Below are positions 4,175 through 64,000 of a stretch of 64,000 nucleotides of DNA, in pieces. Below the pieces are notes generated by a model. The model ran no database searches, was not told the DNA's origin, and saw only the letters and a program-made list of their open reading frames with translations. The position numbers and the translations under genes were made by a program. Positions within the stretch are counted from its first letter, which is position 1, and every line of letters starts with the position of its first letter. The stretch covers positions 1,760,001-1,824,000 of the forward strand of contig CAVTTN010000002.1 in NCBI GenBank assembly GCA_963737655.1. Reading direction: 5' to 3'. The stretch is from an uncultured Planctomycetota bacterium (lineage in GTDB: Bacteria > Planctomycetota > Planctomycetia > Isosphaerales > Isosphaeraceae).

Positions 4175-4936
4175 GTGTCGATCGAGGTCGAAGATTATCA
4201 CAAGGTCTACAAGGACTTCGTGGCCGTCCAGGGCGTGTCGTTCCGGGTCGAGCCGGGCGAGGTGCTCGGCCTCGTCGGCCCCAACGGCGCGGGCAAGACG
4301 ACCACTCTGCGGGCCCTGGCCGGCATCTTGGAGCCGACCCGCGGCCGAATCCGGATCGACGGCCACGACCTGAGCTCCGACCCGGTGCCGGCCAAGGCCG
4401 CGCTGGCCTACGTCCCGGATGACCCGAAGCTGTTCGACAGCCTGACGGTCTGGGAGCACTTCCGGTTCATCGCCTCGGCCTACAAGCTCGGCCCCGACTG
4501 GCCGGAGAAGGCCGAGCGGCTGCTCTCCCAGTTCGAGCTCACGGAGAAGAAAGGCGCGCTGGCCTCCGAGCTCTCCCGGGGGATGCGGCAGAAGGTCGCC
4601 ATCGGCTGCGGCTACCTCCACGACCCGAAGGCCATCCTCCTGGACGAGCCGCTGACCGGCCTGGACCCTCGCGGCATCCGCACGATGAAGGAGACGATCC
4701 TGGAGAGGGCCGACGCCGGGTCCGCCGTGATGGTCAGCTCCCACCTGCTCTCGCTGGTGGAAGACCTCTGCACGACGATCCTGATGCTCGACCGAGGGCG
4801 GGTCGTCCTCCGGGGGAGGCTGGACGACCTGATCCGCGAGGCGGCGGAGTCGGGCCGGGCCGAGACGTTGGAAGACATGTTCCTCCGTTTGACCGAAACC
4901 GAGGCCGACAAGACGGCCGCCGCCCCGGAGGTCTGA
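4175..4936 (+). CDS. ABC transporter ATP-binding protein
   Basis: Walker A GPNGAGKTT, signature LSRGMRQK, Walker B ILLDEP, H-loop SSH. Confidence 0.95.
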   Translation: MSIEVEDYHKVYKDFVAVQGVSFRVEPGEVLGLVGPNGAGKTTTLRALAGILEPTRGRIRIDGHDLSSDPVPAKAALAYVPDDPKLFDSLTVWEHFRFIASAYKLGPDWPEKAERLLSQFELTEKKGALASELSRGMRQKVAIGCGYLHDPKAILLDEPLTGLDPRGIRTMKETILERADAGSAVMVSSHLLSLVEDLCTTILMLDRGRVVLRGRLDDLIREAAESGRAETLEDMFLRLTETEADKTAAAPEV

Positions 4937-13407: not shown

Positions 13408-14978
13408 CTACGGGCCGGTCCTTCGGCGACTCGCCGGATCGGCCGGGATTGTGGCGGCGGCCTCGCTCGGGGTCAATCCGACTTGGCTCGTTGCCCTGAC
13501 CCGATAGACCACCGCCGACCTCGGCCCGCCCGCCGAGTCTCCCCAGACGCGCTCCACCCGGTCGGGCGAGCGGGAGACGAACGCCGACAGCGGGCTCGGG
13601 GCGGCCCGGGCGTAGCGTTCCTCGTCGATCAGGAGGAACGCCACGCCGAAGCGTTCGATCAGCGACGAGATTTCGGCCGGAGAGGCGCCGTCGGGAGGGG
13701 CGATCGCGGCCCGTCCGGTCTGCCAGAACACCTCCCCGGGATGGCGGGTCAGGACCGGCCCGATCGAGTCGCGATCCTCGGCGATCCGGGCGCAGGCGGC
13801 ATCGAACGGAGCGTTCGCGAGCCGGGAGGTGTCGGCCCGATGGCCGAGGATCGCGTAGAGGGAATACGGGATCGCCCCGATCAGGACGAACCCGGCCGCG
13901 ATCCCTCGCGCCCTTCGTCGCCCGATTGGTGCCAGGATCGCCGCCAGCCCCTCGGCCAGTCCGGCGAGGAGGAACGGGATGATCGGGACGAGGAACCGGC
14001 CCGCCTCCGTGAACGGCCAGAGGAGCAGGAGGGCCAGGGTCGCCAGGGGGGCCATCGCGAGGAGGCGTTTTCGGGGCGTCCGAAGCATCCTGATCCATCC
14101 GACGGCGATCCCGCCCGACACGAGGCCGGCGAATGCCGTTGCCGGGATCGTCCAACCCGGTCGGAACACCGTCGCCACCTCCACGACCGGGCCGAGCCAC
14201 TGGTCGGGCATCCTCCGCAGATAAAACAGGGTGTTTTCGGCGATCGTGGCGAGGAGGCCGGACCTCGGGACCAGGCCGATCTGGGTCCGTTCCCGGACCG
14301 CCGCAAGCCAGACGACCCACGGCGAAACGACCAGCATCATCGACATCCCAGCAACCGCCGTCGCGGCGACCTTTCGCCTCAAAAGCAGGTCGCCCAGGAC
14401 CGCCGCCGCCATCGCCAACCCCGCGTGACGGGTCAAGATCGCCGATCCCAGGGCCATTCCGAGCGCGACCCCCCACGATTTCCGCCCGGATCGCGCGACC
14501 CGATCGGCCAGGAGGAGCGAGAGCGTCCCGAGAAGGAGAAACGGAGGCTCCGAACCGATCGCCGATCCGTCCCGTGCCCATCGCCAGTCGATCGCCAGGG
14601 CCAATCCGAGCAGGAAGGCCACTTCGGGCCGGAAGCGCACCCGAAAGAGGAGCCAGGAACCGATCGTGGCCGCGAGCGTACAGGCCATCGCCAGGAGATG
14701 CGCCGCCGGGCGCTCGGCCCGGTGATCCGCCAGGTCAGGGCCAGCCAGATCGGATATCCCGGAGGGAAGTGGGCGTGGAGGGGGGCGTTGGGATGGTCGA
14801 TCTCGCGATAGCCCCGGCCGTCCAGGAGCGACCGGGCGAGGACCGCGTATCCGGCGCCGTCGAATCGAGGAGGGGAGTCGAGCCGGGCGTTCGCCGCCAT
14901 CGCCAGGGTCGCGACGACCGCCAGGATCGCGGCCTGGACCGGCCCGGAGCGGATCGCGGGGAATCGGGCGGGTTTCAT
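13408..14978 (-). CDS. GT-C fold membrane glycosyltransferase, frameshift near 14700
   Basis: DGAGYAVLARSLLDGRGY...HFPPGYP (ORF 14433) continues into SEPPF...LTRHAG...GRFLVP (ORF 13408). Confidence 0.75.
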
Positions 14979-38547: not shown

Positions 38548-40842
38548 TCAGAGAGGGCCGCCGATCGAGTCCGGATCGGTATAGCCGTAGCGGAGGAGGA
38601 TCGCCCGGAGGGCGTCGGGACGCTGGATCGCGATCTCGACGGCCTCTCGGACGGCCTCGGGTCGGATTCGCAAGAGGGTCTTCGCGCGGTCGGGATAGCG
38701 ATTCATGAGGTCCATCAGGCGTTCGGCGCCCGGGTGGCCGGCGACCGGCTCGCGGCGGGCGATCCGGTCGCCGGCGGCCCGGAGGCCCTCGGGGTCGGAC
38801 TTCGCCCAGTTGAGCAGATCGGGCTGGACTCCGAGCCGGCCCGAGGGCGTGAGGCCGTCGCCCCAGAGCCGGGCCAGCGGCTTCAGGTAGGTTCGCACCC
38901 ACTCCGGGGATCGCGGCGGAGGGGGCTTCGAGGTGTCCCTGCGGTCGAGCAACAGTTGCAGGGCCCAGGCCCGCGAGTGCGCCTCCGGGTCCGCGACCGT
39001 AGCCACGCGGAGGCCGCCGAGCTGCCTCGGGCGGAGCGCCCACCACGGCTTCATCGCAAAGAGGAGCCGGGAAACAGCGTCGGCCTTCGAGTCGTGCGTC
39101 AACAGGATTGCGAATGGGAATGAATCGACCGGTGGCGAGATCTCCAGGTCGCCTCGGAGGACGCCCAGGGATTGCTCGTCTTCCAGGACCATGACCGGGT
39201 TCGACTGCCCGTTGACGAAATCGAGCTTCGCGCCCTCGGGCAACTTCTCGTTCAGGTCCGAGTATGCGTCCGTTGTGAAGGCGTCGTACCAGTACGAGAG
39301 CTCGAAGCCCTCTCGCCAGGCGCCTCGGGGGCCACCGATGAAGGCGTTGTAATACGAAAGCTCGAACGGGTGGATGCGAACAAGGTCCACGGCGGCCGGA
39401 GCGAGGACGAGGAGGGCCAGGGCCGGCGTGGCCGAGCGATGGCGGAGGAGCTTCGCCAACCCAACCGTTCCCCACCCGGCGAACGCGGCGAGGAAGGCGA
39501 ACGCGGGGAGGAACAGCCGGACCCCGTCGTGGGCCGGAGTCTCGAACATCCTCATCACGGGGAGGGTCGCGAGGTTCAGGAGGAAGAACTTCGGCAGGTC
39601 CTCCCGCCACGGGGCGAGGATCAGGCCCGCCACCGCCGTAACGAGGATCGTCGCCGGGACCGTGATGGCGATCAGGACCCAGGCATTCGGCCAGGGGAGC
39701 GAATATTCGTAATTCTGCCCGAAATAGAGGACCTGGATGTCCGGGAGGACCCCTCGTCGGGTCGTCGTGATGGCGTAATAGTGGGCGAGCCGGGGGAGGG
39801 CCTCGCGCCACCACGCCGGGTTGCCCAGCCACGCCACGGCGGGGGCGAATGCCAGGAGCGCCTCCCACATTTCCAGCCCCGGGCGCTCCCGGCCCCACAC
39901 CGGATTCCCCTTGAGGAGCCGCCCGATCGCTCGACGGACCAGCCACACGCCCAGGGGGCACAGGAGGAAGGCGCCGGGCATCCAGGTCGAGGGGTGATCG
40001 CGGAAGAGGTCGGTCCTCGCGGGCGTGCGGAGGCCGGGATTCAGCCCCATCGCGACCTGGATCCTCAAGAATTCCTCGCTCAAGCGGCGGACTTCGAGAT
40101 AGGCGACCGCCAGAGGGGCCAGCAAGGCGGCCGAGGTCACGAGACCGTCGATCCAGGCGGCCCGATCGGCCTTGCGGAGGCGGGCGAGGACGAGCCATCC
40201 CAGGATCGGCAGGACGACGAGGACCGCGCCCATCTTCTCGACGAACGCCAGGCCCAGGAGGACGCCCGCGAGGACCCGCCACAGCCCGGCGCCCTCCTCG
40301 GTGATCCCCTTCCACGCCGCGAACGACGCCGCCACCCAGATCAGGAGGCCTGGCGTGTCGGTGTCGATCAGGTGGGCCTGGCCGTAGAGCCGAGGCATCA
40401 GCAAGAGCGAGCCGGCCGCGATCGCGCCGACCCACGGGCCCGATCGCCTCGCCAGGAACCCGAAGAGGAGGGCCACGGTCGCCGAGAATTCGAGGACCGA
40501 GGCCATCCTCCTCGCCGGGATGTCCTTCAGGAAGCCGCCGAAAAGTTCATACGTGAGCAGGTTTAACTGGCCGCCCAGGGGAGGGTGGAAGTTGATCCCG
40601 TGGCGGCCGTAAGGCCAGTAATAGAGCAGGGCGTCCGGGTCGAGGATCGCGTCGAGGTCGGCCGACGACCGGGCCTCCGCGAGCCTTTCCCACCACTGGA
40701 CCGAGACCATCTGGCTATGGCGATAGGCCGGCTCGTCGTAGGTCAGGCCGAAGTCGGCGACGGTCGGGGCTGTCGCGACCAGGGCGACGAGGAAGGCGCC
40801 GATCGTCGCGATCTGCCACGATCGGCCGGTCAACCCATTCAT
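38548..40842 (-). CDS. GT-C fold glycosyltransferase family 39-like
   Basis: GLTYDEPAY, NFHPPLG, DTDTP, HDGVRLFLP, LSYYN. Confidence 0.8.
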   Translation of the reverse strand: MNGLTGRSWQIATIGAFLVALVATAPTVADFGLTYDEPAYRHSQMVSVQWWERLAEARSSADLDAILDPDALLYYWPYGRHGINFHPPLGGQLNLLTYELFGGFLKDIPARRMASVLEFSATVALLFGFLARRSGPWVGAIAAGSLLLMPRLYGQAHLIDTDTPGLLIWVAASFAAWKGITEEGAGLWRVLAGVLLGLAFVEKMGAVLVVLPILGWLVLARLRKADRAAWIDGLVTSAALLAPLAVAYLEVRRLSEEFLRIQVAMGLNPGLRTPARTDLFRDHPSTWMPGAFLLCPLGVWLVRRAIGRLLKGNPVWGRERPGLEMWEALLAFAPAVAWLGNPAWWREALPRLAHYYAITTTRRGVLPDIQVLYFGQNYEYSLPWPNAWVLIAITVPATILVTAVAGLILAPWREDLPKFFLLNLATLPVMRMFETPAHDGVRLFLPAFAFLAAFAGWGTVGLAKLLRHRSATPALALLVLAPAAVDLVRIHPFELSYYNAFIGGPRGAWREGFELSYWYDAFTTDAYSDLNEKLPEGAKLDFVNGQSNPVMVLEDEQSLGVLRGDLEISPPVDSFPFAILLTHDSKADAVSRLLFAMKPWWALRPRQLGGLRVATVADPEAHSRAWALQLLLDRRDTSKPPPPRSPEWVRTYLKPLARLWGDGLTPSGRLGVQPDLLNWAKSDPEGLRAAGDRIARREPVAGHPGAERLMDLMNRYPDRAKTLLRIRPEAVREAVEIAIQRPDALRAILLRYGYTDPDSIGGPL

Positions 40843-51503: not shown

Positions 51504-51648
51504 CTCGGCGCTGCTGGAGAACCGCGGGGATGTTCGAGCACGGACGCACGGAGCGACTCGGCCGATGTAATGCCTCGTCGAGTTCCCGGGCTGTCATCAT
51601 CCGCCGGTAGGGCGACTGGGCTCGTCGGGGAGGGTAGATTCGTATCTT

Positions 51649-52194
51649 ATGTCCCAGATCACCCAACTCCTGGATGCTGCCGCGACCGGCAACCGCCAAG
51701 CCGCGGCCCAGATCCTGCCGCTCATCTACGACGAGTTGCGGAAGCTCGCCGCCGCGCGCCTGGCGGCGGAGGCCCCGGGCCACACCCTCAACGCCACTGC
51801 GCTCGTTCACGAGGCCTATCTGCGGCTGATCGGCGACCAGCAGTTCGACGGCCGCGGCCACTTCTTCGCGGCCGCGGCCGAAGCCATGCGGCGCATCCTG
51901 GTCGATCACGCCCGCACACGCACGGCCGCCAAGCGCGGGGCCGGACGGCGGGTGACTCTCGATCTGGAGCGCGTCTCCGGTCCCGATCCCGACGCCGATG
52001 TCCTGGCGGTCCACGACGCCCTCGATCGGCTGGCCGCCGTCGACCCGAGGGTGGCCAAGCTCGTGAGCCTGCGATACTTCGGCGGCCGGACCCTCCGCGA
52101 AGCGGCGGAGGACCTGGGCATTGCCCCGCGGACCGCCGACGCCTGGTGGGCCTACGCTCGGGCCTGGCTGGCGGCCGACCTGTCCCGCGGATAA
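51649..52194 (+). CDS. ECF sigma factor (TIGR02999-like)
   Basis: YDELRKLAA, TLNATALVHEAYLRL, AMRRILVDHAR, WAYARAWL. Confidence 0.92.
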   Translation: MSQITQLLDAAATGNRQAAAQILPLIYDELRKLAAARLAAEAPGHTLNATALVHEAYLRLIGDQQFDGRGHFFAAAAEAMRRILVDHARTRTAAKRGAGRRVTLDLERVSGPDPDADVLAVHDALDRLAAVDPRVAKLVSLRYFGGRTLREAAEDLGIAPRTADAWWAYARAWLAADLSRG

Positions 52195-52274
52195 AAGATA
52201 TTTTGAAAACCAATGCGCGTTTCGGCGACAGATTCCGCATTGGGTGGGACGAACCACCACGCAGGAGCGTTTCC

Positions 52275-55200
52275 ATGAGCGAGATCGAACTCTTCACCGA
52301 AGCCCTGAACCGGACCGATCCGGCCGAACGAGCTGCATTTCTCGACCGGGCGTGCGCCGGGGATGCGGAACTGCGGCGACGGATTGATGAGCTGCTGGCC
52401 GGCCACGCCCGGAGCAGCCCCCTCGATCGGCCGCCGCTCTCGCCCGGGGAATCCTCGGAGACCGTGGACCGGGCGACGGCACTCGCGACCGGGGAGCATC
52501 GACCCCACGAGGGGACGGAGACCCTGGCTCACGTCGATCCCAGGGCCACCCCGGACGGGAAATCGGGGGCCTCCGCGCCCTCGACCGACGCGACCGGCGA
52601 GTTCCGACCCGACCGGGCGGCGGCCACGATCGATCACGCCGACTCGGATGCGACAACGGCTACGCCGAAGGCCCCCTCGTCCCACCAGGCCCTGGTCACG
52701 ACGGGCGAAGGGATCGGCACCGTCATCGCCGGACGGTACACGCTGGTCGAGGTCATCGGCGAAGGCGGCATGGGCTCGGTCTACCTGGCAAGTCAGACCG
52801 AGCCGGTGAGGCGGCAGGTGGCGTTGAAGCTGATCAAGACCGGGATGGATTCGCGGGGAGTGCTGGCCCGGTTCGATGCCGAGCGGCAGGCGTTGGCCCT
52901 GATGGATCACCCCAACATCGCCCGGATCTACGACGGCGGCGTCACCCCGGCCGGCCAGCCGTTCTTCGTGATGGAGCTGGTCAAGGGCGTCCCGCTCACC
53001 GACTATTGCGACCGGAAACGGCTGTCGGTCAAGGCCCGGCTGGATCTCTTCGTCTCGGTCTGCCTGGCGGTGCAGCACGCGCATCAGAAGGGGATCATCC
53101 ACCGCGACCTCAAGCCGGGGAACGTGCTGGTCACGGAAGTCGACGGCAAGCCGACGCCGAAGGTGATCGACTTCGGCGTGGCCAAGGCGAAGGAGGTGAA
53201 GCTGACCGACATGAGCTTCTCGGACGTCGGGGCGATCGTCGGCACGCCCACGTACATGAGCCCCGAGCAGGCCGACCCGACCTCGATGGATATCGATACT
53301 CGTACCGACGTGTACGCGCTCGGCGTGATGCTCTACGAGCTGCTGACCGGTTCGCCGCCGATCGACGCCAGGCAGTTCCAGCGGGGGGCCATCCTCGAAA
53401 TGCTGAGGATGGTGCGCGAGGTCGATCCGCCTCGGCCCAGCACCAGGCTGAGCACGGCCGAGGCCCTGCCGAACATCGCCGCGAATCGGAGCATCGAGCC
53501 GGCCCGGCTGTCGAGGCTGCTGCAGGGGGAGCTCGACTGGGTGGTGATGAAGGCGCTGGAGAAGGACCGCAGCCGGCGCTATGACACGGCCAACGGCTTC
53601 GCCCGCGACATCCAGCGTTACCTGGCCGACGAGGTCGTCGAGGCCCGTCCGCCCAGCCGCGGCTACCGACTCAAGAAGTTCGCCAAGCGGAACAAGGGGC
53701 AGGTGGTCGCGGCGAGCCTCGTCCTGATCACGCTCCTGGCCGGGATCGCCGGGACGACCTTCGGGATGATCCGCGCCGAGAAGCGGCGCGAGGAGGCCGA
53801 GCGGAACCTGGCGTTCGCCAGGAAGGGGAATGAGATCCTCAGTTCGGTGTTCACCGGGCTGGACCCGAGACGGACCTACGCCAACCTGAGCGAACTGAAG
53901 GAGGCGCTCGCGGACAACCTCGCGAACGCCGTGAAGGAGCTGGACGGATCGGCGATCGGCGACCCGCGAGAAGTCGCGACGATGCAGCACGAGCTTGGCC
54001 AGTCGCTCGTGGGGCTCGGTCGATTCGATCCCGCGATCGAGGTGCTGAAGAAGTCGTCGGATACGATGGTCGCCTGGCTCGGCCCGGACTACCCGGGCAC
54101 ACTGACCACGCTGAACAGCCTCGCCGTGGCGTACAACAACGTCGGCCGGTCTCCCGAGGCCATCGCCATCCTCGTGCGCGTCCGCGACGCCCAGGAGCGC
54201 ACGCTCGGTCCCGACCATAACGACACGCTGAACACGCTCAACAACCTCGCCGTGGTCTACATGGAGGCCTCGCGACTCCCCGAGGCGATCGCCACGCTCG
54301 AGCGCGCCCGCGACGCCGCGATCGCGAAGCTCGGCCCCAATCACCTCGGGACCCTGACCACGCTTTCCAACCTCGCCCAGGCGTACCAGCTGCTCGGCAG
54401 GACTTCCGAGGCCACCGCGATCCTCGAGCGCGTCCGCGACGCCAAGATCGCCACGCTCGGCCCCGACCATCCCTCGACGCTGAGCACGCTCAACAACCTC
54501 GCCGGAGCGTACTCCGGCGCCGGCAAGCTCCCCGAGGCGATCGCCCTGTACGAGCGCGTCCGCGACGCCCGGGTCGCCACGCTCGGCCCCAATCATCCCT
54601 CCACGCTCCAAACGTTCAACAATCTCGCCGTGGCGTACAAGGCCGCCGGCAGATCCTCCGATGCGGTCGCGGTGTATGAGCGCGTCCGCGACGCCCAGGT
54701 CGCCAAGCTCGGCCCCAACCATCCCGACACGCTGAGCACGCTCAACAACCTCGCCACGTCGTACACGGGCGCCGATCAGCTCCCCAAGGTGATTGCCCTC
54801 TACGAACGCGTCCTCGAAGGTTCGATCGCCACGCTGGGTCCCGACAACCCCAATACCCTGGCGACTCAATCCAACCTCGCCCAGGCGTACGAGGCGGTCG
54901 GCAAGCGCTCCGAGGCCATCGCGATGTTCGAGCGAGTCCGCGACGCCGTGATCGCCAAACTCGGGCCTGATCATCCCTCCACGCTGACCACTCTCAACAA
55001 TCTCGCCTCGGCATACTTGAGCGCCAATCGGCTCACCGAGGCCATCCCCCTGCTCGAACGCATCCGCTCTGCGCGGGCGGCCAAGCTCGGTCCAGACCAC
55101 CCCGACACACTCGTCGCGGAGCACAACCTCGCGGCGGCCTACAAGGCCGCGGGGAAGCTGCCCGAGTCGATCGCCCTGTTCGAGCGCGTTCGCGACCGCC

Positions 55201-56360
55201 AGATCGCCACGCTCGGCCCCAACCACCCCACGACGCTGTTGACGCTCCACAACCTCGCCACGGCCTACCTGCTCGTCGGCAGGGTGCCCGAGGCGATCTC
55301 GATCCTGGAACGTGTCACCGACGCCTCGAGCGCCAGCCTGGGCCCCGACCATCTCGATACCCTGCGTATGCTCGGGGAACTCGCCGATGCGTACCGGGCC
55401 TCCGGCAAGCCCGCCCAGGCGGTCACGCTCCTCGAGCGCATCCGCCGGGGCCAGGCCGCCAAGCTCCCCCCCGACCATCCTCAGGTCCGCATGACGCTGG
55501 AGTATCTCAAGGCGGCTTACAAGGACGCGGGCAGGCTCCCCGAGGCAATCGCCCTGCTGGAGCAACGCCGCGATGATCAGACCGCCAGGCTCGGCCCCGA
55601 CGATCCCGCGACCCTCAGCACGCTCAACCAGCTCGCCGTGATGTACTGGAAGACGAAGCGGCTCGACAAATCCGTGCCGTTGTTCGAGGAGTTGGTCAAG
55701 CGGGGCGAGGCCAAGGGCGGACGCCAGGATCCGCAAGTCCTGCTGAACGTCGGCAACCTCGGGGTGAACTACATGGATGCCGGCCGGCTGGGGGAGGCCA
55801 TCCCGCTCCTCGAAGAAGCCTATCGAGCGTCGAAGCAATTCCCCTCGCTTCGCGACGTCGCCAACCCTTTGATCGAAGCCTACAGGAGGTCGGGCCAGGA
55901 CGCCAAGCTCGTCGAGTTGATCCGCGAGCGATTGCCGGAGGCCCGGAAATCGCTGCCCGAGGACAGCCCGGAACTGGCCGGGATGCTCACCCAGCTCGGC
56001 CTGAGCCTCCTCCAGCAGAAGCAATGGATCGAGGCCGAATCGCACCTCCGCGAGTCCCTGGCCATCCGCGAGAGGAAGGAGCCGGACGACTGGCGGACCT
56101 CCAACACGAAGTCCGCAGTCGGTGGGGCTCTGCTCGGCCAGAAGAAATTCGCCGAGGCCGAGCCGCTGCTCCTCGCCGGCTACGAAGGGATGAAGCAGCG
56201 CGAGGAGAGCATCCCCCCCGGCGCCACCCGCATCGCAGAGGCCCTCGACCGGCTGATCGAGTTCTCCATGGCCACGAACAGGCCGGACGACGTCAAGAAG
56301 TGGCAAGCCGAGCGGGCGAAGTACCCGAAGGCGGCCCCGAGGCCGGGGGAGAAAAAGTGA
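52275..56360 (+). CDS. Ser/Thr protein kinase with TM and about 14 tandem 42-aa TPR repeats
   Basis: GEGGMG, HRDLKPGN, DFG, YMSPEQ; repeats LGP(D/N)HPxTL..LNNLA; GGAG RBS. Confidence 0.93.
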   Translation: MSEIELFTEALNRTDPAERAAFLDRACAGDAELRRRIDELLAGHARSSPLDRPPLSPGESSETVDRATALATGEHRPHEGTETLAHVDPRATPDGKSGASAPSTDATGEFRPDRAAATIDHADSDATTATPKAPSSHQALVTTGEGIGTVIAGRYTLVEVIGEGGMGSVYLASQTEPVRRQVALKLIKTGMDSRGVLARFDAERQALALMDHPNIARIYDGGVTPAGQPFFVMELVKGVPLTDYCDRKRLSVKARLDLFVSVCLAVQHAHQKGIIHRDLKPGNVLVTEVDGKPTPKVIDFGVAKAKEVKLTDMSFSDVGAIVGTPTYMSPEQADPTSMDIDTRTDVYALGVMLYELLTGSPPIDARQFQRGAILEMLRMVREVDPPRPSTRLSTAEALPNIAANRSIEPARLSRLLQGELDWVVMKALEKDRSRRYDTANGFARDIQRYLADEVVEARPPSRGYRLKKFAKRNKGQVVAASLVLITLLAGIAGTTFGMIRAEKRREEAERNLAFARKGNEILSSVFTGLDPRRTYANLSELKEALADNLANAVKELDGSAIGDPREVATMQHELGQSLVGLGRFDPAIEVLKKSSDTMVAWLGPDYPGTLTTLNSLAVAYNNVGRSPEAIAILVRVRDAQERTLGPDHNDTLNTLNNLAVVYMEASRLPEAIATLERARDAAIAKLGPNHLGTLTTLSNLAQAYQLLGRTSEATAILERVRDAKIATLGPDHPSTLSTLNNLAGAYSGAGKLPEAIALYERVRDARVATLGPNHPSTLQTFNNLAVAYKAAGRSSDAVAVYERVRDAQVAKLGPNHPDTLSTLNNLATSYTGADQLPKVIALYERVLEGSIATLGPDNPNTLATQSNLAQAYEAVGKRSEAIAMFERVRDAVIAKLGPDHPSTLTTLNNLASAYLSANRLTEAIPLLERIRSARAAKLGPDHPDTLVAEHNLAAAYKAAGKLPESIALFERVRDRQIATLGPNHPTTLLTLHNLATAYLLVGRVPEAISILERVTDASSASLGPDHLDTLRMLGELADAYRASGKPAQAVTLLERIRRGQAAKLPPDHPQVRMTLEYLKAAYKDAGRLPEAIALLEQRRDDQTARLGPDDPATLSTLNQLAVMYWKTKRLDKSVPLFEELVKRGEAKGGRQDPQVLLNVGNLGVNYMDAGRLGEAIPLLEEAYRASKQFPSLRDVANPLIEAYRRSGQDAKLVELIRERLPEARKSLPEDSPELAGMLTQLGLSLLQQKQWIEAESHLRESLAIRERKEPDDWRTSNTKSAVGGALLGQKKFAEAEPLLLAGYEGMKQREESIPPGATRIAEALDRLIEFSMATNRPDDVKKWQAERAKYPKAAPRPGEKK

Positions 56361-58784: not shown

Positions 58785-59327
58785 TCAATGGAACCCTTTG
58801 CGGCGGTGGCGGCTATATCGTTGGAGAGAGTCCTCGATGACCGGCATGGCGGCCTCGGCGGCCTGGAACTCGTCCACCTCGACCGACTTCCCTTCCAGGA
58901 GCTTGTAGTCCTGGAAGAAGCGGCGGAGCATCGTCAGACGGTGGACCGGCAGTTCACCGGCCTCCTTGAAGCTGTTGAACTCGGGGTCTCCGACGGCCAC
59001 GGCGAGGATCTTGTGGTCGCGCTTGCCGCTGTCGATCATCGTCATCAGCCCGATGGCCCGGGCCGTGACCAGGGTCATCGGCGCCACGGCCTCCTGGCAG
59101 AGGACCAGGACGTCCAGAGGATCGTCGTCCTCGGCGTAGGTCTGGGGGATGAAGCCGTAATTGGCCGGGTAATACACGGCTGAATAGAGGACACGGTCCA
59201 TCCGGAGGAGGCCGGTCTTCTTGTCCAGCTCGTATTTGACGCTCGACCCCATCGGGATCTCGACCAGGGCGTTGAACTCCTGGGGCAGGTGCTCGCCGGG
59301 GGTCACGTCGTGCCAGGGGTGCAGCAT
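58785..59327 (-). CDS. ppa: Inorganic pyrophosphatase (family I)
   Basis: HPWHD, EIP.GS.VKYELDK, YPANYGFIP, DDDPLDVL. Confidence 0.95.
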   Translation of the reverse strand: MLHPWHDVTPGEHLPQEFNALVEIPMGSSVKYELDKKTGLLRMDRVLYSAVYYPANYGFIPQTYAEDDDPLDVLVLCQEAVAPMTLVTARAIGLMTMIDSGKRDHKILAVAVGDPEFNSFKEAGELPVHRLTMLRRFFQDYKLLEGKSVEVDEFQAAEAAMPVIEDSLQRYSRHRRKGFH

Positions 59328-59548
59328 CGCGGTCGGGCTTCCAGGGCGAATGGGGAAACATTTGCGGTCGTGGCTTGGATTGTACCATCGTCGGGTTCGG
59401 AAATCATCAGGGGATGGCTCGACGTGATCGTGTGTGCATTGGGCGGGAGAGGATCTCTTCCTTGACCCGAATCGGTGATCGCGTCGCCGGTCTGCCTCGA
59501 TGATGTGTTTGGAGACAAAAATCCAAGTCACCGGGCCCTCCGCCATTT

Positions 59549-61093
59549 ATGCTCCGACTCGATCGACTCCGCCCATGCCAGATCGCCGACGCTCCCCCTC
59601 GGACGCCCGAGGGGCTGTGGGCTTGGGTCCTCGCCTTCACGGGCATTCGGATCGCCCGGGAGCCGGTCTGCCCGGGGCATTGTTCGCCCTGGAAGTTCTT
59701 CTCGGAGATGTACTTCGGGAGGCCCTCTCTGGCCGTCGTTCTCGGGGCTCGGGGGGCCGGCAAGTCGTTCCTGTCGGCCCTGGATACCCACATGACCAGC
59801 CGGTTCCGGCCGAGGCACGGGACGCGCATCCTGGGCGGGAGCCGGTCGCAGTCCGAGCAGGTCTATCGCGTCCTCCGCGAGACGATCCACGACGGGTCGG
59901 GGCCTCTGGGGTCCGATGCGTCCTCGATCGCCCGACTGTTGAAGACCGAGGCCCGGTATCGCAACGGTTCGGAGGTCGCGATCCTCGCGGCGTCGAGCCG
60001 GAGCGTCCGAGGCCCGCACGTCCCTAGCTTGAAGCTCGACGAGGTCGATGAAATCGACATCGAGCTGCGAGAGGCCGCGATGGGGATGTGCATGGCCCGG
60101 GGCGGCTCGTCCGCGTCGGTCCTGATGACCTCGACGTGGCATCGCGTGGGAGGACCGATGGAGGGCCTGGTCGAGCGGGGCCGGGCCGGGGAATTCCCTC
60201 TCTATACCTTCTGCGCCTTCGACGTCCTCGAACGCTGCCCGGAGGAACGCTCGGGACCTAACCTGGAGAAATGCCCGGCGTGCCCGCTGGTGGCGTATTG
60301 CCACGACGTCAGCGACGGCGGCCCTCCTCTGGCGAAGCGATCCGACGGCCATTATGCCATCGACGCGTTGATCCAGAAGGCTCGGACGACGGCCTCTCGG
60401 ACGTTCGAGGCCGATTACCTCTGTCGAGGGCCCAAGGCCGATGGCCTCTGGTTTCCGATGTTCCGGCCCGAGACCCACGTGGAACTTCGGGCCGAATACG
60501 ACCCGGCGTTGCCGGTGCATCTGGCGATCGACTCGGGAGTGTTCACCGGAGCGGTCTTCTTCCAGGTCGCCCTGCGGATGACGACCGAGGGCCTCGTGGA
60601 GGAGGTCCGCGTGTTCGCCGATTACCTGGCGGAAGGCTCGACGGCGGAAAATCATGCCAGAGCGATCATGGACGTGGCCCGATCTCGATGTAACGGAAGG
60701 GTGGACGTCGCTTCGACCGACCCGGCCGGAGGGGCGAGGAACCCAGTCGGCCCGACGGTGATCGCCGAGTACGAGCGGGTCGGTCTGCGCCCTCTTCGGC
60801 GATGGCCGTTGGGGGCGGTGGCCGACGGCCTGGCCCTGGTGGAGTCGTTCGTGAGCCCGGCCGACGGCCGCCCCCGCCTGCTCGTCCACCCGCGATGCGT
60901 CGCCCTGACGAACGCCCTCCGGGGTTATCGCCGGGCGAGGCGCGGTGGCCAGTGGCAGGATTATCCCGAGGACCCCCAGCACCCCCACGAGGACCTCGTG
61001 GACGCGCTCCGGGGGGGACTGCGTGCCTGTTTCCCCGAGGGACGTTCGTCCCGTCCGACCCTCGCGAGGGTCTCAGCCCGACAGGTCTTCTGA
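59549..61093 (+). CDS. Phage terminase large subunit-like protein
   Basis: Walker A GARGAGKS, VRG + Walker B LKLDEVD, motif III MTST, RNase H-like LAIDSG...DPAG...HEDLVDALR. Confidence 0.82.
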   Translation: MLRLDRLRPCQIADAPPRTPEGLWAWVLAFTGIRIAREPVCPGHCSPWKFFSEMYFGRPSLAVVLGARGAGKSFLSALDTHMTSRFRPRHGTRILGGSRSQSEQVYRVLRETIHDGSGPLGSDASSIARLLKTEARYRNGSEVAILAASSRSVRGPHVPSLKLDEVDEIDIELREAAMGMCMARGGSSASVLMTSTWHRVGGPMEGLVERGRAGEFPLYTFCAFDVLERCPEERSGPNLEKCPACPLVAYCHDVSDGGPPLAKRSDGHYAIDALIQKARTTASRTFEADYLCRGPKADGLWFPMFRPETHVELRAEYDPALPVHLAIDSGVFTGAVFFQVALRMTTEGLVEEVRVFADYLAEGSTAENHARAIMDVARSRCNGRVDVASTDPAGGARNPVGPTVIAEYERVGLRPLRRWPLGAVADGLALVESFVSPADGRPRLLVHPRCVALTNALRGYRRARRGGQWQDYPEDPQHPHEDLVDALRGGLRACFPEGRSSRPTLARVSARQVF

Positions 61094-62697
61094 TGCCCAA
61101 AGACACCCAGGACCTCGAACTGATCGGCCGCCGCCACCCCGAGTGGCGCGAGCACCAACTCCGCTGGCGATGGCTCCTCGACTCGCTCGAAGGGGGTGAG
61201 CGCTACCGCCAGGCGATTTATGGATATGACCGGCGCGGCCTCCCCGTGAGGAACCTCGTCCGTCACAAACGCGAATACCCCGACCCTCGCGACTGGACCG
61301 GAACGACCCTCGACGGGATGACCATCCCTGCGACTGGTCCGGACTCGATCGGCCTGACAACCGACGACGATTACGAGCTCCGGAGGGCACGTACCCCGGT
61401 GCCGACGTTCGTCGCCGAGGCCGTCGAGACCCACCTGGCCCGGGTCTACGCCCGAGAGGTTACCCGACGGGGCCCCGAGCGCCTCGTCGAATGGTGGAGG
61501 GACGTGGATGGCTGCGGGACGACGATCGACCACTGGATGGCCGAGACGATCGCGCCCTTGCTGCTGACGCTCGGCCAGCTCGACCTCTGCTTCGATCATC
61601 CCCCCGCCTCGGAGGGCGAGGAGATCGAGACGAGGGCTGATGTCCAGAGGCTGGGCCTGGATCGGTGCGTGGCCTCGTACATCCTGCCGGAAAACCTGCT
61701 CTGGTGGTCCTTGGACGAGTCGGGCAACCGGTACCGGGAATGCCTCGTCCGCGAGTTTCGCGAATCCGACGACGGGCCGGTCGCGCTCTACCGCCACTGG
61801 ACGGCCGAGGGCTGGACCCTCCTCGACCCGGAGGGTGAGACCCTCGCCTCGGCCGATCACCCGTTCGGTCGGGTGCCGATCGTCCGCGTGTTCGACGCGA
61901 GGAAGCCGAGGTGCCTGAACGTCGGCCAGTCGCGCTACGAGGGCGTCGCCGAGAGGCAGCGAGAGTACTACAACCGAGACTCCGAGCTGATCCTCTCGGA
62001 CACGACCCAGGCCCACCCGCTGCTCCAGGGCCCCGAGGACTTCGTCCAGAGCGACGGCACGATCCCGATCGGGCCGAGCTGGCTCCTGCCCAAGAAGAAG
62101 AACGTCCAGGGCAACGGCGCGACCTACGAGGGGTTCTCGGTCGTCGATTTCCCGAAGGACGGCGCGGAGTCGATCCGCAAGAACAAGGCCGACATCCGGG
62201 ACGACGTGGACCGAGACTCGGCGCTGGTCCGTCCGGCGGGGGCGTCGGGCCCGGCGCAGTCGGGACTGTCGAAGCTGGTGGACCTTCGCGACGGCAACAA
62301 CCGCCTGGCGAAGATCGCAAAGGTCCTTTCCCGAGCGGAGCACGCCGCGGCGGAGATGGCCCTGCTGGTCCTGGGCGACGGCGAGGTCGATCCGGCGATC
62401 CGCTCGGAACTGGTGATCAATTATCCGGCCGACTTCGATCTTTTCACTGCCGGGGACGTTGCCGGAGCCACGGCGGATTTCCAGGCGCTGGTGGCCCGGG
62501 CCGGGAGCCTGCCAGAGACCGAGGGCCTCATGCTCTCGCGATTGATGAGGCTCTGCCTGCCGGGATTGACCGATGCCCAGTACGCCCGGTGCGATGAGGA
62601 GGTCATGACGCTTCTGGCCGAGAGGAAGTCCACGCAGAAGTCGACGGCCGGGGAGGGTCAGTTGCAGTACCAGGACGTCAGGCGATGGACGAGCTGA
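61093..62697 (+). CDS. Phage portal-like protein
   Basis: TGATG coupling to terminase; about 534 aa; RHPEW, YELRRAR, DVDGCG, HPFGRVPIV, YYNRDSE, QSGLSK, INYPADFD. Confidence 0.72.
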   Translation: MPKDTQDLELIGRRHPEWREHQLRWRWLLDSLEGGERYRQAIYGYDRRGLPVRNLVRHKREYPDPRDWTGTTLDGMTIPATGPDSIGLTTDDDYELRRARTPVPTFVAEAVETHLARVYAREVTRRGPERLVEWWRDVDGCGTTIDHWMAETIAPLLLTLGQLDLCFDHPPASEGEEIETRADVQRLGLDRCVASYILPENLLWWSLDESGNRYRECLVREFRESDDGPVALYRHWTAEGWTLLDPEGETLASADHPFGRVPIVRVFDARKPRCLNVGQSRYEGVAERQREYYNRDSELILSDTTQAHPLLQGPEDFVQSDGTIPIGPSWLLPKKKNVQGNGATYEGFSVVDFPKDGAESIRKNKADIRDDVDRDSALVRPAGASGPAQSGLSKLVDLRDGNNRLAKIAKVLSRAEHAAAEMALLVLGDGEVDPAIRSELVINYPADFDLFTAGDVAGATADFQALVARAGSLPETEGLMLSRLMRLCLPGLTDAQYARCDEEVMTLLAERKSTQKSTAGEGQLQYQDVRRWTS

Positions 62698-62882
62698 ACC
62701 TCATTGATGGGGATCGGGGGTCCAGGGCCGACGGCCCGGGACCCTCCGAGGAGATAGACCGAATGGTTCCGAGGGAAGTCTCTTCTCTGGCCGCCGCGAT
62801 GGTCGCGGTGGTCGCGGCGGCGGCGGTCGTCCGAGGGCTGATCGCCCCGGCGGTCCTGGGCCTGTTCGACCGGCGGAAGTGA
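62685..62882 (+). CDS. Small hypothetical protein with one hydrophobic segment
   Basis: Overlaps both neighbours; SLAAAMVAVVAAAAVVRGLIAPAVLGLF then DRRK. Confidence 0.4.
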   Translation: MDELNLIDGDRGSRADGPGPSEEIDRMVPREVSSLAAAMVAVVAAAAVVRGLIAPAVLGLFDRRK

Positions 62883-63472
62883 GCGATCCGATGATGGCGG
62901 GAGACTCGGGGATGCAGACTGAACCGACGACCTTCGAGCCGGGCGACCCGGGGCCGAGCGGCCCCTCGGCCGACGAGATGGTCACGATCTCGCGCTCGGA
63001 GCTGGAGGCGCTGAGGGCTCGGGCCGGGTCGCCGGCCGGCCGGCCCGAGGAGGCCGCCGAGGCTGACCGCCGTCTCGCCGAGCTGGAGAAGGCGTACCGG
63101 GGGGCCGTCCTGGATCGCGAGCTGGCCACGGCGCTAGCCGGACGGCCCCTGGTGCCGGGGGCGGCGGCTCAACTCATCAAGCTGTGGCGCGAGGATTTCG
63201 ACGTGTATGAATCCGACGGCTCGCTCCGGGCCGTCTCTCGCGAGGGCAAGCCGCTGGCGAAGGCGGTGGCCGAGCGGCTGGCGGAGCCGGAATTCGCCCA
63301 CTTCCGGGCCCCATCGTCGCGAGGAGGGGCAGCGGCCCGAGGGGCGAATCGCCCTCCGGGGCCTGAGCCAATCGGCGCGAAGACCCTGGGCGAGGCCGCA
63401 CTGATCCGCTGGCGGGAAGCCGCCTCGGGTCCAACCGGGGCCGCCCAGGCCATCGGCCTCCGCCGTCGCTAG
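62879..63472 (+). CDS. Putative capsid scaffolding protein
   Basis: Position between portal and capsid; acidic N-terminus, coiled coil, PEFAHFRAP..RGG near the C-terminus. Confidence 0.6.
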   Translation: MSDPMMAGDSGMQTEPTTFEPGDPGPSGPSADEMVTISRSELEALRARAGSPAGRPEEAAEADRRLAELEKAYRGAVLDRELATALAGRPLVPGAAAQLIKLWREDFDVYESDGSLRAVSREGKPLAKAVAERLAEPEFAHFRAPSSRGGAAARGANRPPGPEPIGAKTLGEAALIRWREAASGPTGAAQAIGLRRR

Positions 63473-63578
63473 GGGCGGGTCGAGTCATGAACGGTCCGGT
63501 GGATGAACCGCCGGCGTCCCTCTCGGAGCGAGCCGTCACCGCGGAGATTCGTCCGCTTTTCCGGGAGATCGTCTCGTC

Positions 63579-64000
63579 ATGCCGAATGCGTACTTGCAGG
63601 GGATCCAGGGGTCGCTCGACAACCAGGCCCAGATCCGCAACGACATCAGCGTGGTCGCCATCAACTGGTTCGTCAACCGCTGCCCGCTGGTCACGCGAGT
63701 GCCCCGCGTCCCGTGCGGGTCGACGACCTTCACGATGGTCAGCCGATCGTTCCGCAGCCGGACGGCCCAGCTCGCCGCCCCGGCCCTGGCGACCGATACT
63801 CAGCTGACCCTGGCCGACGCCAGCGCCTCTGATGAACGGCGACGTCCTGGAGCTGGCCTCGGGCGAGCGGGTCGAGGTCGTCGCCGACCCGATCCTCGCC
63901 ACGAATACCGTGCTGATCCGCCGAGGAGCCGAGGCCACCACGCCCGCTGCTGGCTCGGCCGGGGACACGATCCGCCTGATCGGCAACAGCCGGACTGGAG
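63579..64000 (+). CDS. Putative major capsid protein (SU10/DUF5309-like), partial; apparent frameshift near 63828
   Basis: Missing from the ORF track because there is no stop. GGGAG RBS; MPNAYLQGIQG..IRNDIS....NRCPLVTRV; +1 frame LMNGDVLELASGERVEV...VLIRRGAEATTPAA...DTIRLIGNSRTG. Confidence 0.62.
   Translation, partial: MPNAYLQGIQGSLDNQAQIRNDISVVAINWFVNRCPLVTRVPRVPCGSTTFTMVSRSFRSRTAQLAAPALATDTQLTLADASASDERRRPGAGLGRAGRGRRRPDPRHEYRADPPRSRGHHARCWLGRGHDPPDRQQPDW

Follow-up and report, generated by a model that had tools for sequence, protein, structure and literature searches.

The 64,000-nucleotide stretch analyzed here, which we call the window, comes from positions 1,760,001–1,824,000 of a contig (G000:C2) of an uncultured planctomycete of the family Isosphaeraceae and ends inside an operon of phage head and DNA-packaging genes that starts at position 59,549. 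The reading that we favor, and consider reasonably probable, is that the Isosphaeraceae domesticated this cluster and pass it on vertically as an element resembling a gene transfer agent (GTA), a "viriform" and not a prophage. The first-pass annotation of the window had suggested either a vertically inherited GTA-like system or a capsid compartment. Gene content, chromosomal locus, gene tree and dN/dS (the ratio of nonsynonymous to synonymous substitution rates) all support the former, and each of the sequence-level tests that the annotation had proposed came out in favor of a GTA-like element. Two features of GTAs as a functional class were found: the cluster consists of structural genes without replication, integration or lysogeny modules, and it is inherited vertically at a conserved locus under purifying selection.

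Structural genes and their chromosomal setting

The cluster encodes a large terminase (TerL) motor, a portal, a scaffold, an HK97-type capsid, neck proteins, fibers or spikes, and a siphovirus-type terminator. Sequence was read for 60 kb past the end of the window; positions there are given in the coordinates of locus L001, to which 59,000 is added to obtain a window-equivalent position. The cluster ends at about 74,125 (window-equivalent) and spans 14.6 kb in total, with all of its genes on the plus strand. They are the following, where aa denotes amino acids, MCP the major capsid protein and GC3 the GC content at third codon positions.

59549..61093, + strand: terL, large terminase, 514 aa (PHROGs phrog_2, E 1.6e-12)
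61093..62697, + strand: portal protein, 534 aa (PHROGs phrog_145, E 1.6e-32)
62685..62882, + strand: orf65, 65 aa, GC3 0.82, with a hydrophobic C-terminal segment (residues 30–62)
62879..63472, + strand: head scaffolding protein, 197 aa (PHROGs phrog_206, E 5.1e-7)
63579..63828, + strand: MCP, N-terminal 83 residues, in a frame that differs from the rest of MCP
63829/63832 to 64722 (window-equivalent; L001 5722), + strand: MCP residues 84–380, HK97-fold, SU10-type, running past the window end
L001 5820 to ~6170, + strand: f37, small neck candidate
L001 6112–6834, + strand: f25, candidate head-tail adaptor, a conserved 225–240-aa protein
L001 6923–8317, + strand: g464, beta-helix-like spike
L001 8302–9441, + strand: g379, fiber carrying a tandem duplication
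L001 9562–12615, + strand: fib1017, tailspike or fiber, with a pectate-lyase N terminus and a Gp80 C terminus
L001 12625–14274, + strand: g549, fiber-like
L001 14291 to ~14837, + strand: g138, predicted lambda gpU-like tail terminator, 138 aa, with a frame change near 14689
L001 14886–15125, + strand: g79, 79 aa, marker of the short form described below

The order first read from the window, with terL, the portal gene, a small open reading frame (ORF) and the scaffold gene overlapping in series and a capsid gene following, is confirmed by the ORFs, by the PHROGs and Pfam matches, and by the overlaps themselves: at TGATG (61091–61095) the terL stop overlaps the portal ATG (61093), and at GTGA (62879–62882) the GTG start of the scaffold gene overlaps the orf65 stop. 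The C-terminal 296-aa piece of MCP matches Pfam PF17236 (SU10_MCP) with 119.5 bits and E 2.6e-34, above the curated cut-off of 24.1 bits, and also matches phrog_1328; the N-terminal piece is 82% identical to residues 1–83 of an intact 380-aa MCP from the same genus. Portal residues 1–531 show 71% identity to a same-genus portal, and scaffold homologues occur in nearly all related loci. The position of orf65 is filled in several relatives by ORFs of 70–84 aa, with weak or no sequence similarity. Pfam-A gave no match for TerL, portal or scaffold, and NCBIfam gave none for any cluster protein. The GC content of the cluster (0.65–0.72) is similar to that of its surroundings and its GC3 (0.82–0.94) is as in adjacent genes, which bears out the host-like composition and codon style noted at first pass.

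Across 34 TerL sequences, the Walker A motif (GARGAGKS, residues 66–73) and the Walker B motif (LDEVDE, residues 163–168) are at least 97% conserved, as are several aspartates in the nuclease half. This conservation bears on the possibility that phage capsid genes were recruited to build a DNA-free protein shell, either an encapsulin-like compartment or a secreted nanoparticle. An HK97-fold capsid, and the tail-less form that the element takes in this genome, would suit such a shell. However, conservation of terminase and portal is as strong as that of the capsid, the ATPase and nuclease motifs are intact, and the scaffold, neck and terminator genes that have been kept serve DNA packaging and retention and not a compartment. 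The compartment reading of the first-pass annotation is therefore unlikely, and we hold a DNA-free shell to be very improbable. As a separate observation on TerL, residues 222–252 between the ATPase and nuclease halves contain invariant C222, C230, C242, C245, C251 and H252, a possible zinc-binding insertion.

Downstream of the capsid gene, f25 has an atlas lead to the Mu Gp36/DUF4054 connectors, and the fiber region matches PF23140 (a Gp80 fiber domain; E 1.4e-33) and PF12708 (E 1.1e-7). For g138, an AlphaFold model was made from the same-genus orthologue and not from the frame-broken local copy. This model (predicted local distance difference test, pLDDT, 86.8; predicted template modeling score 0.81) gave 57 Foldseek matches at E ≤ 1e-3, including T5 p142 and a chain of the GTA particle RcGTA. 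Aligned with lambda gpU, it reached template modeling scores of 0.64 (query) and 0.72 (target); the modeled orthologue has the alpha-beta sandwich fold of solved tail terminators. Profile searches of PDB sequences with the tube, terminator and f25 families returned nothing meaningful, and an atlas look-up of g79 yielded no function.

Three further observations concern this part of the cluster. A 368-aa ORF after the capsid gene was rejected as a gene: conservation stops after ~85 residues, beyond which the ORF runs across the true f25 gene in the wrong frame. Within g379, a perfect (100%) 242-nt tandem duplication with copies 7 nt apart (L001 8471–8961; window-equivalent 67471–67961) doubles a domain of ~80 residues; it either arose very recently or is an artefact of the assembly. 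Finally, a paralogue of g464 (38% identity) lies far from the cluster, at G000:C2:6692059-6693342.

On either side, the cluster is bounded by host genes, the nearest of which are these.

58785..59327, − strand: ppa, inorganic pyrophosphatase (PF00719, E 3.8e-56)
L001 16006–16860: PSP1/RicT, host gene (PF04468, NF041131)

The minus-strand genes upstream are ppa, cvpA, an S4-domain gene and pfk. The ppa ORF is open to 59546; its likeliest start is at 59327, on the basis that the alignment with a relative's ppa begins only at residue 68 of the long ORF, and this start leaves a gap of 221 bp before terL, in agreement with the ~220 bp first reported between the cluster and a divergent ppa-cvpA-S4-pfk operon. 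In 9 genomes pfk lies upstream of terL, accompanied by S4 in 5 of those and by cvpA in 3, and the three genes are co-oriented wherever all three are seen. Downstream, genes of a fabF-PSP1-g234-methyltransferase block were found in 11 genomes, including after the long form of the element. The locus of the window's lineage (lineage A, defined below) is thus placed between pfk and fabF/ricT across many genera. The proposal that ppa next to terminase would be syntenic therefore stands as regards a conserved locus but not as regards the neighbor: the conserved left neighbor is pfk (with S4 and cvpA), and ppa adjoins terL in the window's genome through a local inversion of the left block. In the other three same-genus genomes, the left flank is different again.

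Could the cluster be one edge of an intact, inducible prophage whose other modules lie beyond the window? The window shows only the first five genes, and related true temperate phages exist. However, the cluster ends ~10 kb past the window at host genes, namely PSP1/RicT, a Planctomycete-Verrucomicrobia conserved protein and a methyltransferase, and at 14.6 kb it compares with 60 kb for a complete relative. No integrase lies within ~300 kb of the cluster (13 PF00589 matches genome-wide), no tRNA was found at window positions 40,000–64,000 or in the 35 kb past the window end, no direct repeat of at least 14 nt brackets the cluster as an att-like pair, no replication, regulation or lysis module was recognized between the host flanks, and no other gene of the same phage lineage was found anywhere in the genome. 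In relatives, too, the flanking ORFs are ordinary cell genes. The initial statement that no integrase, tRNA or small terminase lies upstream thus holds, and the next 15–50 kb, where such modules were to be sought, contain neck, fiber and terminator genes followed by host genes, with no integrase, att site or replication module. With host genes at its end and no integrase, tRNA, repeat or other phage gene, the cluster is a stand-alone 14.6-kb structural module and not the edge of a prophage. The intact-prophage explanation is already refuted by the downstream sequence and retains next to no probability.

Elsewhere in the window, just to the left of the pfk operon and outside the element, positions 51570–56360 encode a protein of 1,596 aa in which a long TPR array comes after a Ser/Thr kinase domain.

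Inheritance, selection and relatives

A tree of terL, portal and capsid from 21 genomes has 12 of 18 splits in common with the rpoB tree, whereas shuffled labels gave a mean of 0.26 and a maximum of 4 shared splits in 2000 shuffles. Mantel correlations were 0.78 for MCP, 0.82 for portal and 0.51 for TerL, with none of 2000 permutations as high. Shared splits and correlations together provide the congruence with the species tree that had been proposed as a test. Among the hosts of lineage A are the most deeply branching members of the family that were sampled.

Selection was assessed in two pairs of closely related genomes. For the pair G022/G127, dN/dS was 0.056 for terL, 0.065 for portal, 0.059 for MCP and 0.17 for scaffold, and five flanking host genes gave 0.035–0.15; dS was similar, at 0.32–0.60 in the cluster versus 0.39–0.73 in host genes. 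For the pair G018/G119, dN/dS was 0.032 for MCP and 0.080 for a fiber. Head-gene values of 0.03–0.07 are far below 1 and resemble those of the adjacent host genes, and the proposed dN/dS check thus came out in favor of the GTA-like reading. Because both pairs carry the short form of the element, head genes evidently stay under strong selection without tail genes.

The element is widespread in the family. Of the 121 genomes of the family, 90 carry MCP, usually as one copy; by genus it is present in 42 of 53, and among high-quality genomes in 37 of 47. Lineage A, taken as a full-length MCP match of at least 67% identity, is present in 38 of the 121 and is single-copy in at least 38, so that the expected single-copy conservation is borne out by the survey. 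A profile of MCP matched 77 of 98 family genomes, whereas among 303 genomes of other families in the class it gave only 6 marginal matches of ~80 residues, five of which lie within giant ORFs; this class-wide search thus did not find the Isosphaeraceae capsid lineage beyond the family. For TerL, 17 of 24 other family genomes gave a match, but none of 16 from other families in the class did. Cultured carriers of lineage A include Tautonia and Tundrisphaera; related lineages are carried by Aquisphaera, Paludisphaera and Singulisphaera. As to the marginal matches outside the family, in G257, G259, G297, G320, G413 and G422, they fall at profile positions ~60–148 (E about 1e-6) and in five of the six genomes sit in open frames of 4,600–8,200 aa, which suggests a common inserted immunoglobulin-like domain.

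In a portal and MCP tree of 60 entries, three lineages (A, B and C) were resolved. Lineage A forms one clade of 23 entries (SH-aLRT 100) made up of the window's relatives and one short viral contig. In lineages B and C, genomes are intermixed with viral contigs from IMG/VR, where 28 contigs with related MCPs were found and where phage MCPs reach up to 58% identity to lineage C. A 60,163-bp contig, the source of locus L074, is a complete phage with direct terminal repeats, an integrase and 90 ORFs. These temperate, siphovirus-like phages of the Isosphaeraceae resemble the element in having homologous genes for TerL, portal, scaffold, MCP and a large fiber, and the L074 phage shares only these five with the elements. 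Unlike the element, which has only structural genes and no att-like flanking repeats, that phage has its integrase and ~60 further genes. An integrase is present in 4 of the 5 longest related viral records. The existence of related, integrase-bearing phages indicates that true phages of this kind exist and that lineage A comprises structural genes left over from such a phage; the IMG/VR phages probably represent the ancestral virus lineage.

We considered whether lineages B and C could be vertical descendants of the lineage A insertion and rejected this idea, as A is a separate, fully supported clade and the hosts of B and C nest inside the host tree. Elements of B and C show several peculiarities of their own. 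A lineage-B head gene, with a 48% identical capsid, is located on plasmid pPOT-2 (201,468 bp; L195) of Singulisphaera sp. PoT. Elements of different genera (L137/L138, L139/L140 and L141/L142) share downstream pentapeptide-repeat and sigma-70-like proteins, an M32 carboxypeptidase lies downstream in the two elements where this was scanned, and one element carries a D5-type primase-helicase. It may be that the B and C elements are prophage-like and larger, or that they represent further domestications at a second fixed site.

Tailed and tail-less forms and the state of the local copy

Lineage A elements occur in two forms. The long form, seen in seven lineage-A genomes, has an extra module after the terminator gene. 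The first product of this module is a protein of 145 aa, for which the model (pLDDT 72.7) matched tail tubes of siphoviruses; the module continues with two chaperone-sized genes and five more up to a protein of ~700 aa; besides the tail tube it contains baseplate-like genes, and it is followed by fabF and PSP1. The same module lies 3' of the terminator gene in lineages B and C, with a divergence about equal to that of the head genes, and is therefore ancestral. In the short form the module is missing, and a 70–80-aa gene (g79) is found in its place. This is the state of the window's genus and of many other lineages, deep and shallow; homologues of g79 are present at 12 short-form loci and at none of the long-form or B/C loci. 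The copy in the window's genome is a derived short form. Among cultured strains, the record of Tundrisphaera sp. TA3 has a tube gene beside the capsid locus but lacks g79 (long form), that of Tautonia sociabilis GM2012 has g79 and no tube (short form), and that of Tautonia sp. JC769 has g79 by the capsid locus, with a weak tube-like match on another contig only.

The selection on head, neck and terminator genes that lack a tube and a baseplate raises the question of whether short-form heads are completed with borrowed tails, those of a co-resident or infecting phage of lineage B or C. Related tailed phages and prophage-like elements do circulate in the same family, and some genomes contain a second, divergent MCP. 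A precedent is provided by the capsid-forming phage-inducible chromosomal islands (PICIs), tail-stealing satellites that themselves supply terminase, portal, capsid and head-tail connectors and encode no tail. They are mobile and carry integrase, regulation and replication modules. The short form is like them in having its own head genes and no tail, but is unlike them in being vertically inherited and in having no integrase, replication or primase gene, or regulatory module. No excision gene and no sign of mobility were found either, the locus is fixed, its tree is congruent with that of the host, and no second element of the lineage is present in this genome. We therefore consider a tail-stealing capsid island improbable.

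Several observations weigh against the GTA-like reading, and some of them would fit a cryptic prophage remnant in slow decay: an old siphovirus that integrated a single time and lost its integrase and early genes, now functionless, with a dead copy in this genome. The assembly as a whole lacks the tail tube and baseplate module. Two frame breaks lie within 14.6 kb, a single-base break of MCP near 63828–63831, relative to all intact relatives, and a break in the terminator gene near 73689 (window-equivalent). Since these two genes are broken and the tail module is absent, the local copy could be non-functional. The element was not found in 31 of the 121 family genomes, some of them complete, and is thus dispensable, and the fiber region is variable or deleted in relatives. 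Fibers and terminator in the window's genus have dN/dS values of 0.2–1.0 with near-saturated dS. The species tree, based on rpoB only, is thin, and the 6 of 18 splits that differ are for the most part poorly supported. Roughly half of the proteins in the cluster are without family assignment, and no lysis gene or small terminase was recognized in the cluster, although the small ORFs orf65 and g79 could conceal a lysis function.

A functionless remnant, the main rival to the GTA-like reading, fits these local defects but not the selection seen across the family. Under decay one would not expect head genes whose dN/dS equals that of their host neighbors, also in short-form pairs, nor MCP ORFs of about 380 aa that are unbroken in virtually every good assembly, nor invariant TerL catalytic motifs, nor an element kept since before the deepest splits sampled in the family. 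Frame breaks, moreover, track assembly quality, and rpoB itself is broken in such assemblies. The present assembly consists of 3 contigs at a completeness of 87.7%, and a frame-switch test based on GC3 phase flagged 523 of its 2343 testable junctions, compared with 4 of 73 when the assemblies were of high quality and 9 of 36 when they had a frame-broken rpoB. This detector is home-made and produces false positives (one of its six calls in the window, at 4885, is an ordinary boundary between ABC ATPase and exporter genes), and only the contrast between assemblies, not single calls, is used. Frame switches without a stop codon occur genome-wide, in the window at about 280, 1255, 11305 and 11635, and their frequency suggests indel errors or many pseudogenes. 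The breaks in MCP and the terminator gene are probably assembly errors. Overall, we judge a functionless remnant to be unlikely.

Proposed working of the element and known systems

Candidate regulatory features were found just upstream of terL.

59474..59504, + strand: bipartite motif GGTGAT-N18-CGATGAT, 45–75 nt upstream of terL

In all 4 genomes of the genus the motif spans 31 nt, although the genes upstream of it are unrelated, which makes it a candidate promoter or operator of the cluster. It is also present in genome G016, upstream of a small helix-turn-helix gene, and was not found in the other 27 loci scanned. A scan of 59200–59700 for sigma-70 consensus promoters and terminators found nothing. 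In other genera, at 16 of the lineage-A loci examined (L019, L023-L026, L028, L030-L033 and L043-L049), terL is immediately preceded by the gene for a conserved helix-turn-helix protein of ~80 aa (core RWRFRRNLVIYVAHRQGLSQRLLADVFDLPRSRI) with a weak likeness to sigma-70 region 4. This protein, which is absent from the whole genome of the window, may be a small terminase or a regulator.

We envisage that the operon would be expressed under some host-controlled condition, possibly from the region of the bipartite motif, and that procapsids would assemble on portal and scaffold. TerL would then fill the procapsids with DNA, and neck proteins and terminator would close the heads. As no small terminase with a specificity domain was recognized in this genome, packaging would begin on host DNA without sequence specificity, in the manner of known GTAs, which take up more or less random pieces shorter than their own gene cluster; this is the only, indirect hint of such packaging. 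In its ancestral long form, for example that of Tundrisphaera sp. TA3, the element could deliver DNA as RcGTA does, by way of its tube, chaperones and baseplate-like genes. In the short form, where the 79-aa gene replaces the tail module, the particles, if made, would be tail-less heads with neck and fibers.

A bolder proposal, which we put forward tentatively as possible and not as probable, is that the element is an independently domesticated GTA, the first in Planctomycetota, and that a strongly selected tail-less derivative, which combines head, neck and terminator with a new protein of 70–80 aa and may or may not have fibers, has replaced the tailed form in many lineages. If so, DNA-filled, tail-less capsids would serve the host in a way that no known GTA does, whether through another route of entry, through borrowed tails, or in a role other than transfer such as DNA export or storage. 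To our knowledge, GTAs have been found to evolve independently in no more than a handful of cases. The present candidate would be family-wide and anciently domesticated, in a phylum whose cell envelopes are unusual and whose gene exchange is little known, and would offer an independent case in which to test how a phage becomes a host organ. Tailed and tail-less forms at the same locus, both in cultured strains, amount to a natural experiment. Related free phages exist for comparison, and what selection maintains in a tail-less packaging machine is directly testable.

In the literature available to us on GTAs in Planctomycetes or Planctomycetota and on Isosphaeraceae prophages, no published description of such an element was found. 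The accessible part of a 2024 review of GTAs (PMC11841831) contains no occurrence of "Planctomyc" and counts the prevalence of GTAs and their common rules among the open questions. According to the same part of that review, BaGTA, VSH-1, Dd1 and VTA are genetically distinct from, and functionally analogous to, the RcGTA-like GTAs (PMC11841831). The element is like BaGTA (Bartonella), VSH-1 (Brachyspira), Dd1 (Desulfovibrio) and VTA (Methanococcus voltae) in that genes for a phage-derived particle have been kept by the host. Unlike it, none of these comes from Planctomycetota; relatedness to them was compared by family libraries only.

The closest comparison is with RcGTA (of Rhodobacter capsulatus) and CcGTA of the Alphaproteobacteria, whose properties are taken here in part from PMC11841831. 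The element differs from RcGTA in its SU10-type capsid, in its phylum, in having no recognized small terminase in this genome, in its fiber or spike genes between neck and terminator, and in its widespread tail-less form. No Pfam, NCBIfam or PHROG match to GTA-specific families, and hence no sequence homology to RcGTA families, was found. The terminator and tube models match chains of the RcGTA particle (6tba) among those of other siphoviruses, a likeness at the level of fold only and common to all siphoviruses. In organization, the resemblance goes further: like RcGTA and CcGTA, the element is a head-to-tail cluster of ~15 kb with siphovirus ancestry and no integrase or replication genes, held at a fixed chromosomal locus with vertical inheritance and purifying selection, and in its long form the order of genes is that of RcGTA, from the terminator through the tube and chaperone-sized genes to a short tail module.

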